Source: Candidatus Anderseniibacteriota bacterium (GTDB lineage: Bacteria; Patescibacteriota; Andersenbacteria; UBA10190). Taken from it: a DNA stretch of 64,000 bases. Each line of letters begins with the position of its first letter. Position 1 is the stretch's first letter. The translations under genes and the position numbers were made by a program. The stretch is taken from assembly GCA_016197005.1 (NCBI GenBank), contig JACPWO010000001.1, forward strand, positions 5,106 through 69,105, read 5' to 3'. This document shows, piece after piece, positions 48,262 through 64,000 of this stretch. The notes under the pieces were generated by a model, which saw nothing but the letters and a program-made list of their open reading frames with translations, was not told the origin of the DNA and searched no databases.

Positions 48262-49509
48262 TTGCTGGCCAATAGCATTGGGTTATCACTTATATCTGAC
48301 CACGTCAAGGTGAATATCCTTTTTCTTTCTGGACAGTACCCTCCGCACAGCAAAGGTGGCGGAGAAATTTCAACGTCCCTCATTGCCGATGGTTTGCGCA
48401 ATAGGGGAGTATCGGTCGAGGTAGTAACCGATACTGACTTGCCGGGCCTGATAGCGAAACCACTTTTTGAGCGATCTCATGCGCAAAAACTCGCACGAAT
48501 TTTGGCTGCTCAAAAGAAAGGCGGCGCAGAAACAATAGGGCACGCGCACGATTTTCGTAGTGGATTAGTTTTATATGAGCTCATGCAGATGGGAGTGATA
48601 GAACCTAAGCAAGCCTACATTACTCTACGTGACTATGCAGCTATCTCAGGGGATACAAATAACATTGTGAAACCTGGCAGCATTACGAAGGAGCCGCTTA
48701 GTATGCACGCCAGTTGGAAGTCGTACCGCGTGCAAGAGGCCCCTTTTCCGCGTAATATAGCCCGTTTTTGGCAGTATACATATAACATCCGCTATCGGAA
48801 CAAGGCACTTAGCTCCATTCCCAACCGCATTTATATATCGAATGCGCAGCGACAATATATCGAGCAACACCTTCCTGTACCACAGCAAAAGACTAGGATT
48901 ACGACGATATACAACCCCGTGGCACCGGAATATTTTCAATCTCCCGCTCCTACCAAGAATACATTCGAGGTGCTGTATGTAGGGCGCATTGAGGAATACA
49001 AGGGAGTGCGTCTGCTCCTTACCGCATGGCGAGAGGTTGTGGTGCAGGTTCCGCAAGCTCGCTTAAAACTTGTTGGGCGTGGTGCACAAGAGACGGAGTA
49101 TGTAGATCTCGTGAGGGAATGGGGTTTGGAAAAATCAGTGACTTTTGTGGAGCACGTGCCGTATGAGCAGATGATCAAACTGTATGATGCGGCAGGCATT
49201 ATTGTGTCGCCTCATCTCTGGGCGGAACCATTTGGTCGATCAGTCATTGAGGCAATGGCCCGGGCCCGGGTTGTGATAGCGGCGAATCACGGTGGCCCAG
49301 CCGAACTTATTCAGCCAGAAAAGACTGGGATACTCTTTTCGAAGGGATCAGTAGGGGCGCTTAGCACGTCACTCGTGAGTGCGCTGCACATGCCGATAGA
49401 GCGACGACAGGCCATAGGAGCAGCTGCCAGACAGTGGACGGAGCAGCACCTCTCAGTTGACCATATTGCTCGTCAGTACAAACAATTTTATCGCGAGACG
49501 AGTATCTGA
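48262..49509 (+). CDS. GT4-family glycosyltransferase
   Basis: …VNILFLSGQYPPHSKGGGE…; EPFGRSVIEAMARARVVIAAN. The start is uncertain (TTG 48262 or GTG 48310). The 3' end overlaps the convergent GT9 gene by 22 nt. Confidence 0.6.
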   Translation: MLANSIGLSLISDHVKVNILFLSGQYPPHSKGGGEISTSLIADGLRNRGVSVEVVTDTDLPGLIAKPLFERSHAQKLARILAAQKKGGAETIGHAHDFRSGLVLYELMQMGVIEPKQAYITLRDYAAISGDTNNIVKPGSITKEPLSMHASWKSYRVQEAPFPRNIARFWQYTYNIRYRNKALSSIPNRIYISNAQRQYIEQHLPVPQQKTRITTIYNPVAPEYFQSPAPTKNTFEVLYVGRIEEYKGVRLLLTAWREVVVQVPQARLKLVGRGAQETEYVDLVREWGLEKSVTFVEHVPYEQMIKLYDAAGIIVSPHLWAEPFGRSVIEAMARARVVIAANHGGPAELIQPEKTGILFSKGSVGALSTSLVSALHMPIERRQAIGAAARQWTEQHLSVDHIARQYKQFYRETSI

Positions 49510-50582
49510 TTAACTCGATTGGTGACCATGGCGACAGTAAGGGAGAGAATGGTTTCGTGAGGTTGTTTCTCAAGATTTGCGCTCGCTTCGGTTCTATATA
49601 TCGGCTTTGTTCCTGGTGCTCTGGCAATAGAAGATTTTTTCCCTCGTGGACCGGTTGCTATTTCGCTAGTTGGACCAAATAATCCAAGTGTTTCGACTCC
49701 AGCAGCTGCGGCCAAATGCATAAGACCAGAATCGTTGGCAATCATGAGACGACAGCGCTGCATAACTGCAGCCGTCGTGAAAAGTGAACTAGAGATAGAC
49801 GTAACAGAAGACGATCTTATTAATGATCGTAGCTGCTCCTTCTGCCCCTCTTCTTCTGGGCCACCGAATAGCAAAATGTGTGCCTTGTGATCTTTAATGA
49901 GTGCCTGAGCTACTTCCGCAAACCGTTCAATTGGCCAGCGCTTGAAGGCTAAATCCGGAGCAGAACCGGCATGCAGGCCAATAATCATCTGATGAGGCGA
50001 AAGGTTTATCCCTTTCAGCAGTGCAGTTGCTTCACCGCGATATTGCTCAGAAACGTTTATCTTGTAGCCATTATCATGGACGGAGATACCGAGCGGCCCC
50101 AGTAAGCGCAAATTTTGCTCTATATCATGTATACTTCGTTCTTCTTCTATCGTGTCAGTAAGGAGAAACGTACTGGCAGGTGAGTTAAAAAATGGATAGC
50201 TAGCACCGATTCGACGAGTAATTCCCCCTAGGTACAAATAGGCAGCACTTTTTACGAGCTGGCCAGGGGAGAGAACGATCCCAATATCGAATTTCTTTTT
50301 ATAGAGTGATAGCACTTGTCGTACATGTTGCGCTGCCGTCGTCTGAATTGGCATTTCAATAATACTATCCACGTTTGGATCGTTTTCCGCTAAGAATTTT
50401 GTCCCGCGCGGTGCTACCCACACGGCAATCGAAGAATTTGGAAATTTTTCCTTAGCTGCGGCGATAGCTGGCGATTGCATAATATAATTTCCAATCCCTG
50501 ATAGCGCCAAGAAGAGAATACGAGGATTTTCTTTAGTGCGATTTGCGGAGATCGTCATAGAGAGAAATGATTTTATTAACAC
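49488..50582 (-). CDS. GT9-family glycosyltransferase (ADP-heptose:LPS heptosyltransferase-like fold)
   Basis: ILFLALSGIGNYIMQSPAI…; LHAGSAPDLAFKRWPIERFAEV…ILLFGGPEE. Confidence 0.6.
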   Translation of the reverse strand: MLIKSFLSMTISANRTKENPRILFLALSGIGNYIMQSPAIAAAKEKFPNSSIAVWVAPRGTKFLAENDPNVDSIIEMPIQTTAAQHVRQVLSLYKKKFDIGIVLSPGQLVKSAAYLYLGGITRRIGASYPFFNSPASTFLLTDTIEEERSIHDIEQNLRLLGPLGISVHDNGYKINVSEQYRGEATALLKGINLSPHQMIIGLHAGSAPDLAFKRWPIERFAEVAQALIKDHKAHILLFGGPEEEGQKEQLRSLIRSSSVTSISSSLFTTAAVMQRCRLMIANDSGLMHLAAAAGVETLGLFGPTSEIATGPRGKKSSIARAPGTKPIYRTEASANLEKQPHETILSLTVAMVTNRVNQILVSR

Positions 50583-51687
50583 TTGTGTCCCAGGAAAAGT
50601 TTATAGCCACGAAGTCCTTAGCCTTGCGGGCGTCAAGCTCCCGACCCATTGTATCTTTCGCGAGCGTATCCATAATATTTCGTACTAACTGCTCGGAGGA
50701 AGAGAAGAGCATCTCTTGGTACATTGGTGCAGTTACAAATGGGATTGCCGCAGTATCTCGCGCAATAATTGGGGTTCCTGCAGCTTGTGCCTCAGCAATA
50801 ACGATACCAAACGCCTCATAATATGAGGGATGGATGAAGATAGTTGCTTGCTGGTAGGCGCCAATAAGTTCCTCTCGAGAGAGTTTACCTAAAAAATGAA
50901 TACTTGAGTCGACACCTATACGACGAGCTAGTACGCGAAGCTGCTCAAGCAAACCAAAATCTTCGCCAACAACTACAAGTTGTATATCGGGGATCTGGCG
51001 ACGGACAGTTGGTAAAACCTGGATAAGATCCTCTAATCCTTTTCCTGGCGACAAACGAGAAACCGTGAGTAAAATTGTTCCCCTTATTTTTCTCTTCAAA
51101 AAAGGATTTATACGAGGGCGCTCAAATTCGTCTACATCTACTCCGGGCGGAATTACTTCAAATCGTTTTACTGGAAAACAAGCAGCTTCAATTAATTTTT
51201 GCTCAAACGGAGATATAACTACTACGACATCAGCTGCTTCAAATGTTTTTCTACCAATATATTTTTTATATAACTGCCATGTTTTTTTCTGCCTTGTTTT
51301 ATTCTCGTAATACATGGGATGAAAAATAAATGGAACAGCATGTTCACGTGCATACCGAGCGGTTACATCGGCTGGCTGATACCAAAAACTGTAGCCGTGT
51401 AAGATATCTGGCTTATGGTGGGTGAGATAATATCGCAGAGCTTGGAGTCGGGGGTAAGAGAGTAATGGAGTCTTCAAATGATGGAGACGTTGGACGTATG
51501 GTGGGTCATTTAGTAAAAGCTCTGGGTTGAGTTCCTCAATCGGGCTATGCATTCGCATCTTGCTGGTTAATACGCGAACATCCCGACCTTCATTAATGTT
51601 TCTAGTGCGTTCCACAAGCTCTTGGACATACGTTTCAACCCCACCGGTTGAAGGTGGGTACCGCAAACAGGTATGTACTATTCTCAT
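50533..51687 (-). CDS. GT4-family glycosyltransferase
   Basis: MRIVHTCLRYPPSTGGVETYV…; YYEAFGIVIAEAQAAGTPIIARD. Confidence 0.7.
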   Translation of the reverse strand: MRIVHTCLRYPPSTGGVETYVQELVERTRNINEGRDVRVLTSKMRMHSPIEELNPELLLNDPPYVQRLHHLKTPLLSYPRLQALRYYLTHHKPDILHGYSFWYQPADVTARYAREHAVPFIFHPMYYENKTRQKKTWQLYKKYIGRKTFEAADVVVVISPFEQKLIEAACFPVKRFEVIPPGVDVDEFERPRINPFLKRKIRGTILLTVSRLSPGKGLEDLIQVLPTVRRQIPDIQLVVVGEDFGLLEQLRVLARRIGVDSSIHFLGKLSREELIGAYQQATIFIHPSYYEAFGIVIAEAQAAGTPIIARDTAAIPFVTAPMYQEMLFSSSEQLVRNIMDTLAKDTMGRELDARKAKDFVAINFSWDTSVNKIISLYDDLRKSH

Positions 51688-52481
51688 ATGTGTTTTTTCA
51701 CCATATTTAGATATTTATTGCCCATTTCCCATTCATAGTATCCAGATAAGAGGGCCCACATAAAGCCGGCGTAGCCATCCCGTAGACCTCCACGATAAAA
51801 CGCTAATTTTATAAATTGCCGCACAGCCAACGTACATGGAAGAAGTTTTGAAGGCTTAATTGATCGTCCAGAGCGATGTTTTCCGCTTGCAGCCATTTGG
51901 GCAGCGTCGAGTGAGGTGTACCCGTGCATTTTTTCTAAATAGGAAGAAACTGTTGCGTGACTATGGTGAATCAAAAAAGCTGGAATCATTCCAGAATTGT
52001 CACCACCTAGTTTTACAATTCTATCCCCGGAAGCATTGATAAGCTCCATTTGCTCGTGGACAGCTCGATTAGTCCATTGCGCTTGTCCTTTTCTTACGAG
52101 GCGAGGGTTGTTTCCAGTCAGGTGCTTGAGTGGACGACCAAGAAAAATATCTACTACTCGTACCCAGTAGACCGAATATTGGGTTGTTCCCGAGAGTACT
52201 GTAGTAATTTCCTGCCTCAATGCCGGAGAGATTTCTTCATCGGCATCCAAAAAGAAAACCCATTTAGAAGTTGCTGCAGATAATCCTCGATTCTTTTGCG
52301 ATCCATATCCCTCCCACTCGTTTTGAATGATTCTCGCACCTGCTGCTGTTACTATCTCCGCAGTTCGATCTTGACTTGAGTCATCGACAACAATAATCTC
52401 ATCGGCAAATGTAGCACTCTGGATAGCCCGAGCAATGACTTTTTCTTCATTCTTGGCAGTAATTACAACGGTAAGGCTCAT
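51684..52481 (-). CDS. GT2-family glycosyltransferase
   Basis: LTVVITAKNEEKVI…IIVVDDSSQD…LDADE. Confidence 0.7.
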   Translation of the reverse strand: MSLTVVITAKNEEKVIARAIQSATFADEIIVVDDSSQDRTAEIVTAAGARIIQNEWEGYGSQKNRGLSAATSKWVFFLDADEEISPALRQEITTVLSGTTQYSVYWVRVVDIFLGRPLKHLTGNNPRLVRKGQAQWTNRAVHEQMELINASGDRIVKLGGDNSGMIPAFLIHHSHATVSSYLEKMHGYTSLDAAQMAASGKHRSGRSIKPSKLLPCTLAVRQFIKLAFYRGGLRDGYAGFMWALLSGYYEWEMGNKYLNMVKKHI

Positions 52482-53134
52482 AGCTCAATCACTTGTTGAA
52501 TTGTTTTAACAGCAATGGGGAGCTTTGAAACAAATGCAACGTGTCGGGCAAAATCATCAGTGGAGATAGTGTGCTCCTTCTCATGTTCGCTATTGTCAAC
52601 GATGTGAAATGTTTCAACTAGCCACTTGTTAGAGACAACTGCCCAGATTGCTAAAAGATTTGCCTTCCAGACACGAAAATTTCGACGAGTGAAGTCGAAT
52701 GATCTGATTTTATAGGGATCAGTTGGCGGCGTAGTTTCCAGTCCGCGTACTAAACTCCGAGCCGCCGAATAATGCTGAGCTGTGGCCTTTCGAACATTGT
52801 CATTGTGAGCACCACCGGGATAGACGAGGGTTTTTGCGGCAAGCTTTTGGACTGGTTCAGCGAGTTCTTGGGTAAGTTGCTCAGCCGTAATCTTCGTGAG
52901 ATCAACGTGATTAATAGAATGGGCGGCAATTTCATGTCCGTGCTTAGTCAAGTCAAGCCAGGCTGACCATGGTCGTATTGATCGTCCTTCCTTCGCTTCC
53001 ACCCGAGCCGAATTAAGCGGAAGAGCAAAAACTCCAGGCATCTCATGCTGGTTTAATATTGGGAGAACATTTTCGTACGTCTGACTGTACCCATCGTCAA
53101 ACGAAAAAGTTATTACTCCCCGTGTAGTACTCAT
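52478..53134 (-). CDS. polysaccharide deacetylase (CE4 / NodB homology domain)
   Basis: ITFSFDDGY…; HGHEIAAHSINH. Confidence 0.65.
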   Translation of the reverse strand: MSTTRGVITFSFDDGYSQTYENVLPILNQHEMPGVFALPLNSARVEAKEGRSIRPWSAWLDLTKHGHEIAAHSINHVDLTKITAEQLTQELAEPVQKLAAKTLVYPGGAHNDNVRKATAQHYSAARSLVRGLETTPPTDPYKIRSFDFTRRNFRVWKANLLAIWAVVSNKWLVETFHIVDNSEHEKEHTISTDDFARHVAFVSKLPIAVKTIQQVIEL

Positions 53135-54309
53135 GAAACGTATTTTTTAATTTCCGCTAATACTTTTTTACTAGCCGTGCCATCCGTAGTTGTGACCATG
53201 CGCTGGAGGGTAGATGTTACGGCAGCTTGTTTCTCTTTCGGGTTTTGTAATGCGCGATCAATTGCTTTGATTAGTTCCTTCTTGTTATTAGCGACATAGG
53301 TGCCATTGTCTGCCAGTACGTCTACGTAGTGCTCTTTAAAATCATGAGATACCGGCGACCGTTTCCAGCGAATCCAATCAAACGGAGCACCATATGTAAT
53401 ATTGATGACAGGCTGGCCTGCTAGCATGGACTCAAGAGCGACGCTGGAAGAGTGATTTATAAGAACATTGGTATGTTTAAATAGGGCAACTAACATATAA
53501 ATGTCTTCCTGTGTCGGCCGATAGGCAAAAGCAGGGTGGGGGGCTGGATCTTTACGACCGAAGGAAAAGCGAACGGTAACTCCTAGCTGCTGTAGTTTCT
53601 GGTGCTTTTTCATATTTCCTCCCGGGTGAACTGATGCATACAAGTGAGAGCGGGGAATATTACCCCTCTGCATTGCAGCGATTACTGCTTCAACTACGTA
53701 ATCCAATGGATATAGTTCAGTGGTGGCAAAGTGAAGCAGAGGCAGAGAAGTATCCGTGAAGCCGAGATACTGAAAAAGGGCATCTTTACTGGGAATGTGG
53801 TCGTCGTGGCTAAAGTAATCCAGTCGAGGAGCTCCGATAACAATAACTTGATCCTCTCGCACCGATGGAATGAGTCGTAGTAAATGTGATTTCATCATGG
53901 TGTTCCAAACAATAAGGTGATCAGCGATGTGGATCGGTTTCTTATTCTGCATAAGCCGCCCAATTTTCCAAACATTATCCCAGCTCGCAATGAATGTCAG
54001 AGTAGAAATTTGCAGAGCTCCTGCACTTTTGAGCAATGGATAATCTAGTTCGTCATGGCCGACAGTATCGGTAATGACAATATCGGGAGCAAGATGCTGA
54101 AGGAGTTTCTCGTGGCCTGCCATATCTTTGGGATTTTCGTAATATGAAAACTTTGATGAAAAGTCAGAGAAAATCTCCTGTGCCACGGCAGCTGCCGGCG
54201 TAACAATATACACACCGGTAATATCCGAATCGTTCTCAATATATTGCCGCAGTGGCAACACGAGCTCACGCAGGTGATACCCAGTCGGCACAGAAAAAAG
54301 CAATTTCAT
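53131..54309 (-). CDS. GT-B-like transferase, possibly CDP-glycerol glycerophosphotransferase (TagB/TagF) family
   Basis: The C-terminal block LINHSSSVALESMLAGQPVINI resembles the TagF 'LITDYSSV' region. No other diagnostic motif was seen. Confidence 0.35.
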   Translation of the reverse strand: MKLLFSVPTGYHLRELVLPLRQYIENDSDITGVYIVTPAAAVAQEIFSDFSSKFSYYENPKDMAGHEKLLQHLAPDIVITDTVGHDELDYPLLKSAGALQISTLTFIASWDNVWKIGRLMQNKKPIHIADHLIVWNTMMKSHLLRLIPSVREDQVIVIGAPRLDYFSHDDHIPSKDALFQYLGFTDTSLPLLHFATTELYPLDYVVEAVIAAMQRGNIPRSHLYASVHPGGNMKKHQKLQQLGVTVRFSFGRKDPAPHPAFAYRPTQEDIYMLVALFKHTNVLINHSSSVALESMLAGQPVINITYGAPFDWIRWKRSPVSHDFKEHYVDVLADNGTYVANNKKELIKAIDRALQNPKEKQAAVTSTLQRMVTTTDGTASKKVLAEIKKYVS

Positions 54310-54310
54310 A

Positions 54311-55036
54311 TTATTTACCGGTTAGGCGTAGTCGCCACGCGAGTAGAAGAGCTTCCTGAACAATATTCCCATTCATCTTTGATTGCCCGTCCCGTCGTTC
54401 CGTAAATATAATCGGAATTTCGCGAAGTTTTTGTCCGGTCTTCCACGCTCGAAAATTCATAGCAATCTGAAACCCATATCCATTTGCATCTATTGTTTCG
54501 AAGTTAATTGCCTTAAGCGTATCCGTTTTCCACGCCTTAAAACCGCCAGTGGCATCATGTATAGGAATGCCGGTGACGATACGAGCATACCAATTACCAG
54601 CCAGACTAATAAGAAGTCGTCGTAAAGGCCAGTTAACCACACTAATACCGTGGCTGTACCGGGAACCAATTGCTACATCAGCTGACTCCAGAGCGCCGAG
54701 GAGTCGGGGTAGATCTTCTGGATCGTGCGAAAAGTCAGCATCCATTTGAACAATTGCGTCAGCCCCATGATCTAGCGCGTACCGAAACCCAGCGACGTAC
54801 GCGCGTCCTAGGCCAGCTTTGGCGGGCCGTGTTTTCAAATGGAGGGCCGGAAACGCCTTTTGCATCGAGGCAACAATCTCACCCGTTTTATCCGGGGAAG
54901 AATCATCGACAATAAGCACTGATAATCGAGGAATAGATAGACTAAATAAAGACTCAATTAAGCGTTTTATATTATCGCGCTCGTTATAGGTAGGGATGAC
55001 TACCCAGGGATTCTTAATCGGCATGGAAGTGATCAT
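54311..55036 (-). CDS. GT2 polyprenyl-phosphate mannosyl/glycosyl transferase (Dpm1-like, soluble)
   Basis: VVIPTYNERDNI…LIVDDSSPDKTGEIV…DADFSHDP. Confidence 0.7.
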   Translation of the reverse strand: MITSMPIKNPWVVIPTYNERDNIKRLIESLFSLSIPRLSVLIVDDSSPDKTGEIVASMQKAFPALHLKTRPAKAGLGRAYVAGFRYALDHGADAIVQMDADFSHDPEDLPRLLGALESADVAIGSRYSHGISVVNWPLRRLLISLAGNWYARIVTGIPIHDATGGFKAWKTDTLKAINFETIDANGYGFQIAMNFRAWKTGQKLREIPIIFTERRDGQSKMNGNIVQEALLLAWRLRLTGK

Positions 55037-56093
55037 TAAGGACAGTCATTACTTCGTCAACTGTGATAACAGAAAGGATGCTTTTCGTATGCTGACGCCC
55101 AGGTGTTTGCCAACCTGTATATCCTTGTGTCTTCGCTTCAGCCGGTGTGAGACTAACAAACGGCGCATTATTTTTCAGTAAACGAATATCCGAGTAATTA
55201 GTTACCCCCAGGAGTGTGCGGTGCTTACGCTTCGAGTTTCGAATATATTCGTTTAAAAAGTAAGCGGGAGCAGCCCGATGAAGAGGATGATCACCATATA
55301 AACAAATAGTTGGGCATCCAACCGCCGCAGCAAAATGCATTGGCCCGGATAGAACTCCAATTGCCACATCGGCATGAAGTAATGTTGCAATATTCTCACG
55401 AAGCGATAGTTTGCGACCTTGATATTCTGGAACGTGTTTACCACCAAACCAGATAGGTTTTACGCCAAACTTTTTCTCAATCATAACCTCGAGTACAGAA
55501 ACTTTTTCCGGATCCCAACCTCGGGTCGTTGCGCCTTCAATTCCTTCGAGCAGCACAATTCGTGGTCGTGGACTATCCTTCATCACGGCAGCGGCTACTT
55601 CTGTATCCTGATTAGAAAAATATAGCTGGTAGTTACTATATGTCTCTTCCGGCAAGCGCAGTACGTCCTTAAATGCATGTTCGATCGGATTGCTTCCATG
55701 TCCGATACCAAAATCGAGCTCGTATACTACATCATAATCGCCTGATTTTTTTTGCTGTTCATAATATTTTTTGCTCCACGTAGGAAACGATCGTCCCTCT
55801 TCTCTGCAAATAGTACCGTCGAGTGACAACGCTGCGTCGTGATAATGCACAAGCTGATCAATATGTGGATTTGTCATCATAAGAGCAATGCAAAATCCAC
55901 TTTGATTTCGCTGTCCCCACCGTGCTCGTTTTAAATAGAAAGGGGGACGACGTTTTACTTCTTTGAACCCCCATGCAGTTACAAGTGTTATGTGGGAGGA
56001 AGGGTATCTCTTTTTTAGCACCTCCAACACTGGTGGCACGATAAATATCATATCGCCCATATTGCCGACGTGTTTTACAAGTATTTTTTTCAC
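55014..56093 (-). CDS. GT9-family glycosyltransferase (heptosyltransferase-like)
   Basis: MKKILVKHVGNMGDMIFIVPPVLEVLKKRYP…; C-domain …GVLSGPMHFAAAVGCPTICLYG. Confidence 0.55.
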   Translation of the reverse strand: MKKILVKHVGNMGDMIFIVPPVLEVLKKRYPSSHITLVTAWGFKEVKRRPPFYLKRARWGQRNQSGFCIALMMTNPHIDQLVHYHDAALSLDGTICREEGRSFPTWSKKYYEQQKKSGDYDVVYELDFGIGHGSNPIEHAFKDVLRLPEETYSNYQLYFSNQDTEVAAAVMKDSPRPRIVLLEGIEGATTRGWDPEKVSVLEVMIEKKFGVKPIWFGGKHVPEYQGRKLSLRENIATLLHADVAIGVLSGPMHFAAAVGCPTICLYGDHPLHRAAPAYFLNEYIRNSKRKHRTLLGVTNYSDIRLLKNNAPFVSLTPAEAKTQGYTGWQTPGRQHTKSILSVITVDEVMTVLNDHFHAD

Positions 56094-57181
56094 AGTTCTG
56101 AAACTAGCTGTTGAATACGTTCAGCTGATCGTTGATAGTTATATTGCTGAAGACGTTGCCGAGCCGTATCTACAACGCTAGCATACAACACCTCATCTTG
56201 AAGAAGACGCGAGCCTTGAGCCACCAAGTCTGCAACTGATTGTTCACGCGAAGCGGGTAGTGCTGGAAATAAGTCCATTTGTCCGTCGGAATTAGCCCCA
56301 ATACTAGGCGTTCCAATGGCAGCACAATCAACCTGCACACGTCCGCGAGTTTGCGTATAGTCAGTATTTACTACCAGGGAAGTCTGAGTCAGATACTCTA
56401 GATGCTGTCGCCATGGTTCAAACCGAATAACTTCAAAGACGGAGTGCTGCAATGCGGAGACATCTGGCTCAGAGCCTGGTTCACCCAACGTTGCAATATG
56501 TATGACATACTCAGGAAACTGTTTCTGAATTTGAGCCGCTACTTCGACTCCCTTGGTAATATTATCTCGGTTCGTAAGTCCGGCCACAAAAATGATCTTC
56601 TTTTTCTCACGAAAAGGTTTAAAAAACTGAGCCGCATATTCAACTGGATACGGTTGGGGGATATAGCGCACTTGCTGTGCGTGATCGGGAACCAGTGCCC
56701 GCCAATCCTTCTCAGTAGATTTAACAATCGTCACAAATATGTCGCACGCTTTAATAAATCCCTTAAAATCCTTTAGCCAGTCCAGGTTTTCGGTCCAGTA
56801 ATCTTTTAGTATTCCGTAGGGTTGAGTGGGAACGCCTAAAATTTTAATACTCGGTATTTCCTTCTTTATACGCTTGGTCAAGGCGGTGATCTCGTGTCCA
56901 TTACTAATTTGATGGACAATCATAAGCGTATCGAATTGTTTGAGATACGAGATGTCATATGCTGGCCACGAGCCAGTCAGTTTTTTATAGACTCGTTTTA
57001 AAATTGTCGGCTTGATTAGAAACGTTAAAGGAATATGTTCGCCTTCGAGAGCGGATACATAGCAACCAAAACTCGTTGGATCGAGTTCTTTTTGGGGATC
57101 ACTCAAATAGTTAGGTCTCTCTGGTGTATGTCGCCACACCGCCCCCGTTTTTGATGTGTATTCAAGAACTGCAAATTTCAT
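56090..57181 (-). CDS. GT-B-fold glycosyltransferase, family unassigned
   Basis: Two Rossmann-like halves. C-domain …RGRVQVDCAAIGTPSIGA…. Confidence 0.4.
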   Translation of the reverse strand: MKFAVLEYTSKTGAVWRHTPERPNYLSDPQKELDPTSFGCYVSALEGEHIPLTFLIKPTILKRVYKKLTGSWPAYDISYLKQFDTLMIVHQISNGHEITALTKRIKKEIPSIKILGVPTQPYGILKDYWTENLDWLKDFKGFIKACDIFVTIVKSTEKDWRALVPDHAQQVRYIPQPYPVEYAAQFFKPFREKKKIIFVAGLTNRDNITKGVEVAAQIQKQFPEYVIHIATLGEPGSEPDVSALQHSVFEVIRFEPWRQHLEYLTQTSLVVNTDYTQTRGRVQVDCAAIGTPSIGANSDGQMDLFPALPASREQSVADLVAQGSRLLQDEVLYASVVDTARQRLQQYNYQRSAERIQQLVSEL

Positions 57182-57184
57182 AGG

Positions 57185-58735
57185 CTATACTTTGCGCCAC
57201 TTTACGAGTTTTCCACGAATAATTGCAAGCACTGTTTCCATTTCTTCCACCTTCCACAGCCAAGCGCCACCAAAGAAGACGACGCACCCAATAAGAGTGG
57301 GTAGGAATAATTGTGTTAGTGAAATTCCTGGAAGTTCTACAGTGCGGATAAATAAAATAACAGCTGCCAGTAAAATTGCGAGACAAGCAGTTTTTAAAAA
57401 CGTTATGTGATGAAACGCCCTGGTAAGATTCGGAATATGTCGACGGAGATAAAAACCATACAAAAGTGCCGTACTTATTGGCACGAGCGAAGAAGCCAGC
57501 GCCAGTCCAGCGTGGCCCATGGGTGGAACTAAAAGCAAGAAGAGGGAAATTGCGACAATCTGAGAGGCGATGGAGACAATAACAGCTGCTTTTGTCTTTT
57601 GTAGAGCCAGTACCGCATGTCCGAAAACTGAACTAATGCCATTAGTTGTCAGCCCAAGTACTAAGAAAAGCAGTGCAATACTCGTCATAGCGGCATCCTG
57701 CTTTGAAAAGGATCCATGCTGATACACAAAATCAATGAGGGGTTCACGCAACAATGCAACGCCAATAACCAAAGGAACTGTGACAAAAGTAATGAGGCGA
57801 ATCGCTGAGCTTATAGTCACCAACATCCCAGCGGCATCTTTTTTACTAGCTTTTTGCGATAGAAGCGGAAAAATAACCAATGTTACCGAATTAAGAAACA
57901 TGATAGTCAGAAGTTGAGTAATTTTTTCCGCAAATTTTAGCGAGGCGAGACTTCCCTCAGTTAAATCAGACACGAGCATACGATATACGATTCCTGCTAC
58001 CTGCGTCACTAATACAGAGAAGATGAAAGGGTAGACCATATACGCCAGTTGGCGAACAATTGGATCACGAATATTAAAGATAAAACGGTACTTAAGTCCG
58101 GCTCTGCGTAGTCCAATCATTAATACTAGAAATTGGAAAAGCGAACCTATGGCCACTCCAATTGCGAGTGCGGCAATTCCCATACGTGGTGCCAGTGTGA
58201 CAATCGCGATAATAGATATGGCTGGTGCCAGAAGGCGCATTGAAGCAGGTAACGCAAACCGCTGAAGTGAATGGAGCATGGAGGTCGCAAACTCAACCAA
58301 AAACAGGAATAGGAACGACGGAAGAAGAATGTAGAGCAAATAGACTGTGAGTTCAAAAGTCTCGGGCGCAAAACCGGGCGCTATGAAATGAATGAAGGGG
58401 CGAGCAAACAATGTAAGAATGGCAATCATCATAATATATAGCACCGCAGTTATATGAAATATATTGAGCGCCATATGCCACGCATCTTGTCGTCGCCCAT
58501 TCGACAGCTTCTGTACAAACATAGGGATAAATACCGCGGTAATTGAGCCTCCTAACAAAAGCTTTGATAGCAGCTCTGAGGTTGATTGCGCCATAAAGAA
58601 TGCATCGGTTTCGGCAGCGGCTCCGAAATAGTAGGCAACCAGCAATTGTAGTACGAAGCCAACCAAGGCTCCCCCAAACGCCGTCAGTCCGATTACACCA
58701 GCATTGCCAGTTGTACGTTCAAACTCTGTTTTCAT
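57185..58735 (-). CDS. MurJ/MviN-like MOP-superfamily flippase
   Basis: 14 predicted TM helices. …VAYYFGAAAETDAFFMAQSTSELLSKLLLGGSITAVFIPMF matches the MurJ N-terminal signature. Confidence 0.65.
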   Translation of the reverse strand: MKTEFERTTGNAGVIGLTAFGGALVGFVLQLLVAYYFGAAAETDAFFMAQSTSELLSKLLLGGSITAVFIPMFVQKLSNGRRQDAWHMALNIFHITAVLYIMMIAILTLFARPFIHFIAPGFAPETFELTVYLLYILLPSFLFLFLVEFATSMLHSLQRFALPASMRLLAPAISIIAIVTLAPRMGIAALAIGVAIGSLFQFLVLMIGLRRAGLKYRFIFNIRDPIVRQLAYMVYPFIFSVLVTQVAGIVYRMLVSDLTEGSLASLKFAEKITQLLTIMFLNSVTLVIFPLLSQKASKKDAAGMLVTISSAIRLITFVTVPLVIGVALLREPLIDFVYQHGSFSKQDAAMTSIALLFLVLGLTTNGISSVFGHAVLALQKTKAAVIVSIASQIVAISLFLLLVPPMGHAGLALASSLVPISTALLYGFYLRRHIPNLTRAFHHITFLKTACLAILLAAVILFIRTVELPGISLTQLFLPTLIGCVVFFGGAWLWKVEEMETVLAIIRGKLVKWRKV

Positions 58736-59934
58736 AAAGCTAGTTCAATTACGCGAGCATACACAGCTAGCAAATCAAGAAGTGCTAAGAATGTAAGAGC
58801 ATAAAGGATTAACTCAGCTATTTTTCCATGCGAACGTAGATAGGAAGAGATACCCGCTAAGCCAACAGCACTCGTATACGCAATTGCAAGAACAGTCAGA
58901 ATAGGAGTGATGAAGCATCCAATTGTTATAAAGATGATAGATGACCCAAACACTCTTCTACTTTGTCGCCACAACAAAATGAGGCCGATACCGGTGCAGA
59001 TAAGTGCGGGGATGCCAATATATGCACCGATCGGCATAACCGCAATCTGATTGGGATCAAGAAATACATCTTTAAGATGTCCAAGTGAGGTTAGTCCTGT
59101 CCAAGGTACTCTCCCGGCTATTACTAAAGCCCAAAATGTTGTAAAAGCCGCAATATGGGCTCCAAACAAAGTTGCTGGTGGACGTAGCGAACGACGCTTT
59201 AGCAAAAACAACACACCCCACACAATGCCCGCTTGTAAAACAACGAGAAGAAAAGATTGAATACTTACGTCACGTACTAAGAGTGGGAGAGATGCGGACA
59301 CCGACAGTCCGATTGCGTATAGCGGATACAACAGGTGCTTTGCAGAACGATGCCAGACGATAAGAAAAGTAGCCGCGATGAGTAGTAATCCTCCCATTTG
59401 TAATGTAATTGCTGGTCGAACTGACATAAATACCTCGTATGCAGCGGGACTCGATTGTGGAGCTCCATCGATAAACAAAACGGCATCGCGATTAAAAGTC
59501 TCATCCTGTTGGCGCTGCATAAGTCCCACTTTTCCCGAAAGGGAAGGGGGTACAGAAATTGCCAAAACTAATTTCTCGCGATGAACGGTTTCAAAAGGTG
59601 AAGATAGTCGCAAGAAAACCGGAGCGTTAGCATTTAAAAAGGATGACGGAAATACTTGTTGACCAATATTTTCCCCACTCCGTCGCAGGTTCAGCGTTAT
59701 GGTATCTACGGGTATGTCTTGGACAAGTGGTTTTACATACACCCCTACTCGACTAATATTAGCGGCAGAATTCACAAATTCCTGCTCGTAGATTTTGTCT
59801 GATATAAGTGGCACTACCAGACTTGCATCCTCTGAGGGAGATAAGACAATAATTTGTCGATCAGCTTGAATAAGCAGTAGTCCGACTGCGGTTGCTGCCA
59901 GCAGTAGCGCACCAATTACTGTGCGATATGTCAT
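58732..59934 (-). CDS. membrane protein, hypothetical (N-terminal TM, roughly 170 aa soluble domain, then about 7 TM helices)
   Basis: The start is moved to the internal ATG (MTYRTVIGALLL…), which forms an ATGA overlap with the stop of the upstream small ORF. Confidence 0.45.
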   Translation of the reverse strand: MTYRTVIGALLLAATAVGLLLIQADRQIIVLSPSEDASLVVPLISDKIYEQEFVNSAANISRVGVYVKPLVQDIPVDTITLNLRRSGENIGQQVFPSSFLNANAPVFLRLSSPFETVHREKLVLAISVPPSLSGKVGLMQRQQDETFNRDAVLFIDGAPQSSPAAYEVFMSVRPAITLQMGGLLLIAATFLIVWHRSAKHLLYPLYAIGLSVSASLPLLVRDVSIQSFLLVVLQAGIVWGVLFLLKRRSLRPPATLFGAHIAAFTTFWALVIAGRVPWTGLTSLGHLKDVFLDPNQIAVMPIGAYIGIPALICTGIGLILLWRQSRRVFGSSIIFITIGCFITPILTVLAIAYTSAVGLAGISSYLRSHGKIAELILYALTFLALLDLLAVYARVIELAL

Positions 59935-60107
59935 AGCGGTCGTCGCCATAACACACCAACTGCTGCCACCACACCAATACTCAATAGAATCGTGGTCAGA
60001 GAACTAGAAAAAATGGCGGGGTGAAACCAACGTGCAATACCAACCAATGCCGCTGTTAGGAATGCGGCCCAACTCGTGACGAATAAAATTGAAGAAGAAT
60101 GCATCAT
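59931..60107 (-). CDS. unlisted small ORF: 58 aa two-helix membrane protein
   Basis: MMHSSSILFVTSWAAFLTAALVGIARWFHPAIFSSSLTTILLSIGVVAAVGVLWRRPL. The start ATG overlaps the stop of the upstream gene (ATGA), and the stop TGA overlaps the ATG of the downstream gene (ATGA). Confidence 0.35.
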   Translation of the reverse strand: MMHSSSILFVTSWAAFLTAALVGIARWFHPAIFSSSLTTILLSIGVVAAVGVLWRRPL

Positions 60108-60673
60108 TGCGCTCGCTCACGCCTAAGAACACTGCGAATATAGTCCTTTGTTTCAGCAATCGTTGGCCAGGTATACCTTACCCGAGCAGATAACTCACGT
60201 ACTTCCCAGGAGGCAGTTTGGTTTATTCCAGCATCAATATCCGTCGGAGTGTCAGTTTCTGCAAAAAACATAAGATCAATTGAACGGTCAGTCTCCTGAA
60301 ACTTATTAGTAAGCGGTACAGTAATCGTCCGCTCCTGCCATTCATGCGCATTTCCAGCCGTCCAAAGTACTACCGGTGGATAGCTTAGCCAGAAATCATT
60401 TTCTCGAACTCCGACGGTAAGATTTTTCGTATTACCAGGATGGAATCGTATTGTTAACTCCAGCTCCTTCATAAACACCGGTTCGCGTAAATAGATATCC
60501 GCATGAGCAAGCTTCTCACTTATCTGAACGCTGTCATCTAGGCGAGGATATGGGATGCCAGCAATTGACTCGAGAGCAGAGACTTCTCGAGGACCACGCT
60601 GAGCAACATCAAAACAAAAACCAGCCACGATAAGCAGTACGACAACCCCTCCAATTTTTAGCCCGGTGTTCAT
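60104..60673 (-). CDS. membrane-anchored extracytoplasmic protein, hypothetical
   Basis: N-terminal TM helix (GGVVVLLIVAGFCF), then a roughly 160 aa soluble domain. Confidence 0.45.
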   Translation of the reverse strand: MNTGLKIGGVVVLLIVAGFCFDVAQRGPREVSALESIAGIPYPRLDDSVQISEKLAHADIYLREPVFMKELELTIRFHPGNTKNLTVGVRENDFWLSYPPVVLWTAGNAHEWQERTITVPLTNKFQETDRSIDLMFFAETDTPTDIDAGINQTASWEVRELSARVRYTWPTIAETKDYIRSVLRRERAQ

Positions 60674-62124
60674 TTCTTAAGAAAACTGAGGCGGGGGTGG
60701 ATACTAGCAAGTAGTGCCCGATCACTCGGTTTAACTTCTCCTAAAATCCACAACACTACGATATAGAGGCCAAGTAATACTACATATTGAAGAGGGAGCA
60801 AGAATGGAGAAACTTCCCAAACATATGTAGGCAAAACGGCTGCCGCGGTCGCAATAACAATGTTAATTGTGCTCTTTACCGGATAGGGAATACGGAAAGT
60901 GGAGAAAATATATATCGTTAGCGCAATTAAACCAACAAAAGCAGCAATGGTTGTCTGCCAAGCCGCTCCTACGAGTTGGTACCGAGGAATAAGAATAAAG
61001 CCAGCAATTAAGCTAACAATTATCATGAGAATAGTAATTCCAAGTGCAGTCTTAGCCTTATTTGCTCCGGCGGCAATATTAGCGAGAAGTAAATAGAAAG
61101 AAAGAATACCTACCCCTAACATCAGAACAGTAAGTGCTGGTGCCCCCGGTACAAAAGAAGACGAGAAGAATAAGATAACGAGCTGTTCACTAGTGGCCGC
61201 TGCCAACGTAATTGACGGAATAATGAGAGCAATAAGATATCGCAACATTCGACTGATAAAAGAGACGGCTTGAGTTTGTGATGCACCCGGCTTCGTCAAC
61301 TTTGAGACACTGGGCAAAACGATAAATGATAAGCCTTGAAGTAAGAAGTATGAGATACGCGAGAGCGTAACGGCAGCGTTGTAGTAACCAGCCTGCACAT
61401 CATCACGGAGAAGTGATTTCACCATAAAAAGATCAATGCTCATCAGTAGTTGTAACCCCGCCAGAATAAGGACATACATTCCAGCAAAAGAGAGAAACTC
61501 CTTAAGCGGTAATTTCGCAGTGGTCTTTTTATTACGAGTTGCTCGCGTCCAATACCACCCAAGCATAGCGGCAATAACTCCACCGATAGCAAATCCCGAA
61601 AAGGCACCAAAAACATCAAAGGCGTAGAGCAGCGCAACCGCTCCAGCTAGCTTGGCGATAGCGTAAATAATAGTAAGGAGTGCCTGCCGGTTAAAGCGAT
61701 GCAAGCCGCTAAAGTACTGAACGTATATGGGGTAAAAAGCTTGCAAAAAGAGTACGGCGGCAACGAAAGCAATAAGTGGCGTTAACGTAGGGTCATTTAA
61801 AAGAAAAGCAATACCTGGTGAAAATATGGCCACAATTGCGGACAATCCAAACGCCAGGAGTGTTTGGATTTTAAGCGCCTGTCGTAAAATACTTTCAGCA
61901 TGAACTTCATCTTGAGCGACAAAACGAGAAACGGCACTTGGTACTCCAAGCGTAAGTAAAATACCGAGAATTGTTTGCAAAGATAAAACAACGCCATATA
62001 TTCCATACGGCCCGGGTCCGAGGAAACGACCAATCCACAAGTGCGTAACGTACCCCAGCATGAGCACAACGGCTTGGGCTATAAGGAGGGCCATTGCCCC
62101 CGTTATTCGAGATTGCTTTGGCAT
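60670..62124 (-). CDS. Wzx-like polysaccharide/oligosaccharide flippase (MOP superfamily)
   Basis: 484 aa with 12-14 TM helices. The N-terminal LMLGYVTHLWIGRFLGPGPYGIYG is typical of 'polysaccharide biosynthesis protein' flippases. Confidence 0.6.
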   Translation of the reverse strand: MPKQSRITGAMALLIAQAVVLMLGYVTHLWIGRFLGPGPYGIYGVVLSLQTILGILLTLGVPSAVSRFVAQDEVHAESILRQALKIQTLLAFGLSAIVAIFSPGIAFLLNDPTLTPLIAFVAAVLFLQAFYPIYVQYFSGLHRFNRQALLTIIYAIAKLAGAVALLYAFDVFGAFSGFAIGGVIAAMLGWYWTRATRNKKTTAKLPLKEFLSFAGMYVLILAGLQLLMSIDLFMVKSLLRDDVQAGYYNAAVTLSRISYFLLQGLSFIVLPSVSKLTKPGASQTQAVSFISRMLRYLIALIIPSITLAAATSEQLVILFFSSSFVPGAPALTVLMLGVGILSFYLLLANIAAGANKAKTALGITILMIIVSLIAGFILIPRYQLVGAAWQTTIAAFVGLIALTIYIFSTFRIPYPVKSTINIVIATAAAVLPTYVWEVSPFLLPLQYVVLLGLYIVVLWILGEVKPSDRALLASIHPRLSFLKK

Positions 62125-62142
62125 AGGCTTACTGTATTTCCT

Positions 62143-64000
62143 TCAGGGAATTCGCGCCAATCCAAGCGCGATTAGATCAATTCCAATTGGTTTTTCTTCT
62201 GGATTGAGCATTTTAAGCTCAAGAAGACCTTTGTCGTTATATATAACTGAGTGTGCGGGAATAGTAAGAGGTTGGCCCATTGTAAGTTCAACACGAGAGT
62301 CGTCAGGAAGAACAACCTCTAACTTTTCTGGTCCATATACAGCCTTTACGAGTAATTCAAGATTCACTGTTGGATGTCCGGTATCTTCTTGATCCCATAG
62401 TACTGCAACATAACTGCGAGGATTGAATACAAGAGGAATTACGGAAGCGGACACGGAACGGAATGTTGCTGTACGTTCACGCTGCGGCGAAGAGAGACGG
62501 CTGCTTCGTACACTAGCCGGGAGATGAGCAAACGTATCCTCGCCATCACCGATATCGTTAGCGAGCGTGCTTGTTTTGAGCAACCACGCCGTTTCTTCAT
62601 TGAGGGTACGTTTAGATTCAACAGAAAATAGAATAACGTCAGCACCGCGCGCCTTTTCTTGCAAGATTGGATTGCTCGCAAAGGCGCTATCACTACTCTT
62701 TTCAACTCCCGTTATGTACTTAATATTGTGTTTTTGCAGTAGCTCGCCAATTTCTGACATCGAACCAAGTGAAAAGATTTTCTCGAAGTCCAGCTGTTTC
62801 AAATATAAATCCATCCGCGTCTCTGATTGTCTAGCTTCATTCATCTGCCGCTGAAGATCAGCCGCAATGCGAGTATACATAGGTTTACCCGACAGGATGA
62901 GCCACGAAGAAGAGCGCCGGTTATAGTCGTCGACAAGGACAGCGGCTCGGGAACTGTCTTGTGCGATTATGCCGGCTAAGTACTCGTGTTCAGGTAGTAA
63001 AGTAGAGTTTGTTCGAATCGTATGATTAGTTGTCGCGAATGCGCGCTGGGTTGTTTGAAAAGCAGGCCAGCCCACCAAGATAATTAACGCAATATAACCC
63101 AGACGGCGAGGTAGTTTTGAAAACTCTGAAAAATAATGCCGTAATTGCATAATAAAGTACGCAGCTAGGATGCTTAACGGTACAACGGAGTAAAAAAGCG
63201 CCCGTACCGGAGGAATATCAATAAAAAGACGAGGGCCTTGTGATAGGAGAAGAAAAACTACGACACTAATAGTAAAAGCGATGATCTGTGGATTACGCGA
63301 ACCGAAAGCTTGCTTAGCGAGAAGAATAAATCCAGCCAACCCCAAGAAAAACCAAACTCCACCGGTTATAGCTGGGTAATCTGTTAGATTTGGAACATCA
63401 GCTAAAAGATGGGGGGCAGTAGTAAATAAATGAGGGAGCTTATCATAAAAACCAAATGGAATAGCTGCTACCAAAAGGAGAATAATAAGAGCGCCACCCG
63501 ACACCACACTATAAAAGGCCTGTCGTGAATGGTGGCGCAAACGACTAATTCGGACAAGAAAGAAGGAGGCAGCTACTGGCACAAGAGTGAAGACGGCCAT
63601 AAATACAGAAAACTGATGCGTCAAAATGAGTGCAGCAAGACAGGTAACAGCGAGCGAGAAATCCTGCCAAGAAAATTTCTTAATAAGACGAAGGCCAAGT
63701 AACAAAAGTCCAAATAAAAATATTTCACCAAATATATTTTGATAGTGATAACCCGGTTCCCGCAGGTATCGTAAAAAACGAGTATTTGTCAAAACAAAAA
63801 AGGCAGCTACCAGTGGCAAGATAATGTGCGAATCACCCTTAAATAACTCCCGGCTAATAGTTGCCGCTAACCACGCAACAACAATGCAACCGACAATGGC
63901 GAACACCCCAACGCTCATAAGTGGATACGGCGACAGGGTCATAACGAGGGCAGTTAGCGTGTGCAAGCCTGGGGTAAAAAAATCTCCAGGGTCTCGGTTG
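62143..64000 (-). CDS. polytopic membrane protein with C-terminal soluble domain (5' end lies outside the window)
   Basis: The listed start at 63966 is a TTG. The frame stays open to nt 64000 with no stop (…NRDPGDFFTPG-LHTLTALVM…). About 10 TM helices, then a roughly 300 aa hydrophilic region. Confidence 0.5.
   Translation of the reverse strand, partial: NRDPGDFFTPGLHTLTALVMTLSPYPLMSVGVFAIVGCIVVAWLAATISRELFKGDSHIILPLVAAFFVLTNTRFLRYLREPGYHYQNIFGEIFLFGLLLLGLRLIKKFSWQDFSLAVTCLAALILTHQFSVFMAVFTLVPVAASFFLVRISRLRHHSRQAFYSVVSGGALIILLLVAAIPFGFYDKLPHLFTTAPHLLADVPNLTDYPAITGGVWFFLGLAGFILLAKQAFGSRNPQIIAFTISVVVFLLLSQGPRLFIDIPPVRALFYSVVPLSILAAYFIMQLRHYFSEFSKLPRRLGYIALIILVGWPAFQTTQRAFATTNHTIRTNSTLLPEHEYLAGIIAQDSSRAAVLVDDYNRRSSSWLILSGKPMYTRIAADLQRQMNEARQSETRMDLYLKQLDFEKIFSLGSMSEIGELLQKHNIKYITGVEKSSDSAFASNPILQEKARGADVILFSVESKRTLNEETAWLLKTSTLANDIGDGEDTFAHLPASVRSSRLSSPQRERTATFRSVSASVIPLVFNPRSYVAVLWDQEDTGHPTVNLELLVKAVYGPEKLEVVLPDDSRVELTMGQPLTIPAHSVIYNDKGLLELKMLNPEEKPIGIDLIALGLARIP

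Follow-up and report, generated by a model that had tools for sequence, protein, structure and literature searches.

The minus strand of the window (the whole 64-kb stretch of DNA analysed here) carries at 59931..60107 a 58-codon, ATG-initiated open reading frame (ORF), MMHSSSILFVTSWAAFLTAALVGIARWFHPAIFSSSLTTILLSIGVVAAVGVLWRRPL, which on comparative evidence is a genuine, conserved protein-coding gene for a predicted helical-hairpin membrane protein. The encoded peptide starts MMHSSSILFVTSW and ends VLWRRPL. An original prediction had proposed a real small two-helix membrane protein at this position, absent from gene lists and coupled to the genes on both sides. The protein itself is well supported: the frame is kept in 12 related loci, the turn between the two helices is near-invariant, and the ratio of nonsynonymous to synonymous substitution rates (dN/dS) is consistently below 1 only in this frame. 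Taken as a whole, the best explanation, and one that we consider highly probable, is that a genuine helical-hairpin gene within a glycan operon is coupled to the upstream gene for a 189-amino-acid (189-aa) protein and probably encodes an accessory export or assembly subunit.

Coding signal and relatives of the small ORF

Both junctions of the small ORF can be read directly in the sequence, as had been predicted. At the upstream junction, gcgcaATGAtgc, which reads gcgcaATGAtg, the TGA of the 189-aa gene and the first ATG of the small ORF have 4 nucleotides (nt) in common, and a second ATG follows immediately (60107/60104). At the downstream junction, ccgctATGAcat, the TGA of the small ORF overlaps by 4 nt the ATG at 59934, which lies in the reading frame of the downstream membrane-protein gene and gives MTYRTV... 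When the inner 171 bases were subjected to mononucleotide shuffling, the frame stayed open in 8% of shuffles, and was both open and as hydrophobic as a grand average of hydropathy (GRAVY) of at least 1.2 in 0.2%; the window has, over its six frames, 63 ATG-initiated ORFs of 50-70 aa, and only the small ORF among them reaches this GRAVY value. Judged from the window alone, a chance origin of the ORF is unlikely.

A word-indexed search with the single 58-aa sequence gave no match except itself, and relatives were therefore sought through synteny. The 189-aa protein and the 400-aa product of the downstream gene both have a relative on a Logan contig (43% and 31% identity, respectively), and alignments of these two pairs retrieved 11 more loci from genome and metagenome collections. 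Five of the fetched loci (L004, L006, L007, L009 and L010) have an ORF of 56-61 aa immediately behind the 189-aa homolog; a tblastn search with the 58-aa protein matched weakly at exactly this position in four of them (L004, L006, L007 and L010). The six small proteins align nearly gap-free; a profile built from them found 15 proteins, each 54-63 aa long and each from an Andersenbacteria or 'Patescibacteria group' assembly, and exhaustive phmmer searching, run against 1.84 billion representatives, contributed one further true relative (P0021), bringing the family to 16 distinct proteins. Three other phmmer matches (P0018-P0020) were repetitive, eukaryote-like artefacts and were dropped after inspection.

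All family members but one carry the sequence A-R-W-F-H-P-A-T-F-S, or a close variant of it, between two hydrophobic stretches. The window member has ARWFHPAIFS, the signature with one conservative T-to-I change, and is matched by the family hidden Markov model (HMM) with E=7e-20; length and helices, signature and gene position all place it in what we call the RWFHPATFS two-helix family, an unnamed group defined here from the 16 sequences. A literature search for this small-protein family found no publication on it. The small ORF, by these sequence features, is a member of an undescribed family restricted to the Andersenbacteria/Patescibacteria lineage.

Codon analysis was limited to two moderately close pairs, for which in-frame dN/dS was 0.18 (L006 versus L020) and 0.36 (L015 versus L021), compared with 0.66-2.8 in the other two frames; third-position differences predominate. 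Across loci the codons of the motif vary at their wobble positions (GCA/G/T/C, CGT/C/A, CAC/T, CCC/G/A/T), and the conserved serine of the motif is written with TCN codons in some loci and AGY codons in others. This synonymous variation indicates that selection acts on the protein rather than on an RNA or DNA element, and Rfam covariance models gave no match with E <= 1 in 58500..61000. The reading frame is free of frame-breaking indels in all 12 related loci, the check on which the original prediction could have failed.

AlphaFold2, run on a 15-sequence alignment, predicts a helical hairpin with a mean predicted local distance difference test (pLDDT) score of 91.5 (helix boundaries in Table 1). 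A Foldseek search of this model against the PDB returned nothing with E < 1, as expected for a generic hairpin. Lysine and arginine residues across the 16 members number 31 at the two termini versus 16 in the turn, a distribution that weakly favours an orientation with both termini inside and the RWFHP turn at the outer interface of the membrane. The window protein has no match in Pfam-A, NCBIfam or PDB sequence searches; the 15 members together give Pfam matches to 17 different families, each from one member only, and no family recurs.

The gene is not new to databases, where it is annotated as a hypothetical protein. The 189-aa neighbour is matched exactly on JACOTL010000006.1 of GCA_016178385.1 (Candidatus Andersenbacteria, a metagenome-assembled genome of the candidate phyla radiation (CPR)/Patescibacteria) and on one Logan contig. 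The 58-aa ORF is indeed missing from the gene table of the GenBank contig, and to this extent the description 'unlisted' was right; however, it is listed in the table of the Logan contig, and NCBI nr holds an entry 100% identical to it, 'hypothetical protein HYZ61_00255 [Candidatus Andersenbacteria bacterium]'. HYZ61_00250, the locus tag that follows, covers a 400-aa product beginning MTYRTV, so that the NCBI gene model agrees with the original prediction at both junctions; Prodigal-type calls give the downstream gene a length of 405 aa. Further family members in GenBank are VLG69_00325, WEA04_00280, AAB538_00205 and WEC84_05035. Small membrane proteins are systematically under-called, and here one gene-call set for the contig omits the 58-aa gene.

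Locus context and competing explanations

The contigs encoding six further family members were retrieved, giving 12 distinct loci in total whose context was read. Block order is the same in all 12: a Polysacc_synt (Wzx-like) flippase, a protein of ~180-200 aa, the small ORF, an optional membrane protein of ~400-480 aa, and MurJ, followed, where the contig is long enough, by a 363-aa GT1-like protein, GT9 and GT2. In the window, too, the small ORF comes directly after the ~190-aa anchored-ectodomain gene, its start overlapping the stop of that gene, between the Wzx-like and MurJ genes. Of the 12 loci, 11 have a 4-nt start/stop overlap at the upstream junction, ATGA in ten and GTGA in one, and L010 has a 25-nt overlap. 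Downstream the genes also lie close together in every locus, but the junction varies between a 10-nt spacer and a 20-nt overlap; ATGA is restricted there to the window (if 59934 is used) and L010. Conservation of the ATGA junctions, named as a check in the original prediction, is thus borne out upstream, whereas the downstream one is not a conserved feature. Four loci (L006, L007, L009 and L020) have no homolog of the 400-aa protein in the fetched sequence, and the small ORF runs directly into MurJ; in L006, L009 and L020 the contact is an 8-nt overlap, ATGACTGA.

The small ORF was not found in seven loci (L003, L005, L008 and L011-L014), where the family HMM matches nothing anywhere; these loci have no gap after the 189-aa homolog because both flanking genes overlap. 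A neighbour-joining tree of the 189-aa protein groups the seven in one clade and places L009 as its sister, which points to a single loss or gain. L009 itself is the one family member with a degenerate motif: its 61-aa positional ortholog (L009:4525-4710, CAZSUC010000001.1) keeps the gene position, the two helices and the ATGA junction, and LNLMQPGLIT replaces ARWFHPATFS. Branching as it does beside the gene-lacking clade, it may represent relaxed selection en route to loss.

The ~400-aa protein occurs in two forms. The window, L015, L017, L018, L021 and probably L010 have a short form, and L003, L004, L005, L008, L011-L014 and L019 have a long form with an extra two-helix insertion of ~45-60 aa and a basic loop, …SPRRRQLLP… (alignment A5, columns ~292-340). 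The long form is present in all seven loci that lack the small ORF, and in L004 and L019 it coexists with the small gene. Because the seven loci are one clade, the correlation between insertion and gene absence counts as one evolutionary event.

The main alternative to a partnership with the 189-aa protein is that the small protein serves a MOP flippase (MurJ or Wzx-like) as dedicated partner or regulator, binding in the transmembrane groove of the flippase and tuning the flipping of lipid-linked substrate. Both flippase genes flank the small ORF in every locus, the ORF abuts or overlaps the MurJ start in the four loci without the 400-aa homolog, and small membrane proteins can bind MurJ: the 37-residue phage membrane protein LysM/SglM targets it, and shows that MurJ can be modulated by small transmembrane partners (PMC12506998). 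The likeness lies in a tiny membrane protein linked to a MurJ flippase; LysM, however, is phage-encoded, single-helix and lytic, whereas the small ORF is a chromosomal gene for a two-helix protein, co-transcribed with biosynthetic genes and conserved through vertical descent. The conserved 4-nt coupling, moreover, joins the small gene to the 189-aa gene and not to a flippase, and both flippases are present, at about 57-62% identity, in the seven relatives that lack the small gene. We therefore regard a dedicated flippase partner as unlikely.

Less probable still, indeed very improbable, is a translated spacer, that is, a coupling upstream ORF that passes ribosomes from the 189-aa gene onward and whose peptide has no function. 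The tight junctions at both ends in all loci would fit such a spacer, as would an operon that lacks obvious Shine-Dalgarno motifs and depends on overlaps. Yet neither a spacer nor a leader peptide accounts for a sequence that is not free to drift, with its invariant motif under synonymous variation, its dN/dS of 0.18-0.36, its conserved length of 54-63 aa and its two-helix architecture; and the loci without the small ORF simply overlap the flanking genes, so that no spacer is needed. A chance open frame in intergenic DNA, or a membrane-active peptide that works on its own (a holin or type I toxin, for example), is suggested by the shortness and strong hydrophobicity of the ORF and by weak Pfam matches of single members to holin families (best E = 0.0036). 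Conservation and selection contradict the former; as to the latter, each of these matches comes from only one of 15 members, and the context is not that of a phage, a lysis cassette or an antisense pair but a same-strand ORF in a biosynthetic operon, with glycosyltransferase and flippase neighbours in all loci. We hold this reading to be extremely improbable. The same low standing applies to a fragment of a neighbour produced by frameshift, assembly error or gene fission, either as a C-terminal transmembrane hairpin split from the 189-aa protein or as the N-terminal part of the 400-aa one. The two-helix insertion in 400-aa homologs of the clade without the small ORF looks complementary to it at first sight, but hhalign of the small family against this insertion gave a probability of 0.5%, and L004 and L019 possess both. 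Twelve independent assemblies show the small ORF standing alone, with a start codon of its own; searches of 5.8 billion and 1.84 billion proteins turned up no fused form, and the family HMM has no match in the neighbours at loci without the small ORF. On these comparisons a fragment is effectively refuted. A programmed frameshift fusion with the 189-aa gene was also considered and rejected: no slippery heptamer is present, and upstream of the ATG the frame stays open for just 3 codons.

Possible role of the small protein

The sole invariant association of the small gene is its coupled junction with the 189-aa gene. Conservation of this 4-nt start/stop overlap suggests that ribosomes that finish the 189-aa protein re-initiate at the ATG of the small gene, and that the two proteins would be made together in fixed proportion. 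The hairpin would insert with both ends in the cytoplasm and place the aromatic, basic RWFHP turn at the outer interface of the membrane, where the protein would assist the machinery of glycan export and assembly as a non-catalytic accessory subunit. It would most likely pair with the 189-aa protein, at the single transmembrane anchor or juxtamembrane region of the latter; a partnership with the neighbouring MOP flippases or with the polytopic 400-aa protein is also possible. Our confidence in the insertion, the placement of the turn, the subunit role and the favoured partner is moderate to low, and overall the genomic setting suggests that the product is probably an accessory membrane subunit of envelope-glycan export machinery.

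Several observations weigh against this role or narrow it. Seven relatives have the same operon without the small gene, which is therefore dispensable in that background, and the four relatives with the small gene but no 400-aa protein argue against the latter as an obligatory partner. The topology call relies on a weak charge bias. The family is small, at 16 sequences, and outside the motif the window member is 17-39% identical to the others; no member bears a name, domain or functional annotation, and no curated family covers HYZ61_00255 and its homologs.

A more specific proposal is that the hairpin is a lineage-specific, detachable transmembrane module of the envelope-glycan exporter of Andersenbacteria. 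It would stand in functionally for the two-helix insertion found in the ~400-aa protein of the clade without the small gene, and at the outer leaflet its RWFHP turn would touch either the 189-aa ectodomain or the lipid-linked substrate. Small protein and insertion would then represent split versus fused architectures by analogy, not homology. We think this quite doubtful, slightly more so than a flippase partner; if true, CPR bacteria would have in this protein a new, obligate small subunit of a machine centred on MOP flippases.

Small non-catalytic membrane subunits are familiar from another glycan-handling machine, the eukaryotic oligosaccharyltransferase (OST), in the form of Ost4 and Ost5. 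Like these, the small ORF encodes a very small membrane protein of one or two helices beside lipid-linked glycan enzymes or transporters, with no catalytic motif, and the best Foldseek matches of the hairpin are transmembrane helices of the yeast OST subunits Ost3/Ost6, at a non-significant E = 1.7-2.4. There is, however, no sequence relationship, and the analogy is one of kind, not membership. GtrA, ArnE/ArnF and DUF2304 are small membrane proteins of polysaccharide and lipid-carrier pathways, of about 110-130 aa and 3-4 helices. They share with the small ORF a genomic setting next to glycosyltransferases and flippases, but the small family shows no consistent match to them or to any other Pfam or NCBIfam family.

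Given the minimal genomes of the CPR and the purifying selection on it within a surface-glycan operon, the 58-codon gene probably matters for envelope assembly. It opens no new class of biology and is unsurprising in kind. The practical gain is modest: a validated gene call, the signature ARWFHPATFS and a 16-member family that can be modelled by an HMM and used as the seed of a curated family. The small protein also becomes a concrete candidate subunit when the 189-aa, 400-aa, Wzx-like and MurJ proteins are modelled or expressed.

Downstream start and surrounding operon

The features of the small gene and its neighbours are collected in Table 1.

Table 1. Small gene, its parts and junctions, and adjacent genes in the window
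Feature	Position	Strand	Basis
Small-protein coding sequence, 58 aa, stop codon included	59931..60107	-	ORF, 16 homologs, family HMM, dN/dS
ATGA start/stop overlap with the 189-aa gene, putative translational-coupling junction	60104..60107	-	ATGA or GTGA in 11/12 related loci
Predicted helix 1, residues 4-28, first transmembrane segment	60024..60098	-	AlphaFold2 model, hydropathy
Codons for A-R-W-F-H-P-A-I-F-S, residues 25-34, end of helix 1 and inter-helix turn	60006..60035	-	Amino-acid conservation with wobble variation
Predicted helix 2, residues 35-55, second transmembrane segment, then basic tail WRRPL	59943..60005	-	AlphaFold2 model, charge distribution
ATGA, small-ORF stop versus candidate start (MTYRTV) of the downstream gene	59931..59934	-	Used by the NCBI 400-aa product; also in L010; not conserved in other relatives
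189-aa protein gene, upstream partner, always before the small ORF; N-terminal membrane anchor and conserved ectodomain	60104..60673	-	
Downstream gene, 400 aa (start 59934) or 405 aa (start 59949); N-terminal transmembrane helix, beta-sandwich ectodomain, multi-helix membrane domain	58732..59949	-	
MurJ-family flippase gene, always downstream in the block	57185..58735	-	
Polysacc_synt (Wzx-like MOP flippase) gene, always upstream in the block	60670..62124	-	

The small gene lies in a very long, tightly packed same-strand glycan operon (49488-63966, minus strand). Its genes encode GT2, GT4 and GT9 glycosyltransferases, a TagF-like enzyme, a polysaccharide deacetylase, a large DUF6541-like membrane protein and two MOP-family flippases, a content that points to a surface glycopolymer pathway. 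No gene start in the operon has a recognisable Shine-Dalgarno motif. Since 4-nt ATGA or GTGA overlaps occur at 7 of the 12 operon junctions, not counting the disputed one between the small ORF and the 400-aa gene, the sequence suggests widespread termination-reinitiation coupling in this genome.

The original prediction had also placed the start of the downstream gene at 59934 instead of 59949, the ATG 15 nt further up that begins the longest ORF (MATTAMTYRTV..., 405 aa). Several lines of evidence favour 59934: it is the start in the NCBI annotation, the ATGA arrangement recurs in L010, the homologous genes of L011 and L013 have ATGA starts, and such overlaps are frequent at the other junctions of the operon. 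Homologs start 22-28 residues before a conserved D-R-E motif, a distance of 24 residues from 59934 and 29 from 59949 in the window, and their N-termini read M-x-x-(K/R), with none resembling MATTA. On the other side, relatives with a unique possible ATG overlap the small ORF by 8, 11 and 17 nt, so that the 19-nt overlap implied by 59949 would not be unusual. Shine-Dalgarno motifs are uninformative here because none is visible at any start in the operon. On balance 59934 appears to be the likelier start, with the variable overlaps of relatives leaving 59949 plausible.

Sequence searches in Pfam, NCBIfam and PDB gave no usable match for either the 189-aa or the 400-aa neighbour. The AlphaFold2 model of the 400-aa protein, from a 2-sequence alignment, was poor (pLDDT 52), and only its beta-sandwich ectodomain was usable, with generic jelly-roll/carbohydrate-binding-module (CBM) matches. 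The idea that the ectodomains of the two neighbours are paralogs was rejected (hhalign probability 1%). Towards the window end, upstream of the Wzx-like gene, 62143-63966 (minus strand) encodes a large membrane protein that reaches 765 aa in the full contig and weakly matches DUF6541; the 607-aa ORF listed in the window, with a TTG start, has no Pfam match at E <= 0.001.

Two gene calls in relatives deserve mention. In L019 (5149-5179) the TTG start called for the 481-aa homolog of the downstream protein overlaps the small ORF by 20 nt; this call is probably wrong, and the tblastn alignment to the window protein starts at ATG 5179, 10 nt past the small-ORF stop. In L015 (6387-7958; GCA_964359735.1, CAYHTZ010000014.1) the MurJ homolog is broken into ORFs of 351 aa and 163 aa, which could reflect a frameshift, an assembly error or a pseudogene. 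Finally, the C-terminus of the 189-aa family is strongly conserved as …S-I/V-L-x-R-E-R/K-x-L, also in loci without the small ORF (window 60104-60130; alignment A4, last 8 columns), and its purine-rich codons (GAGCGAG, GAACG), 5-15 nt ahead of the next start, might double as a weak ribosome-binding signal.

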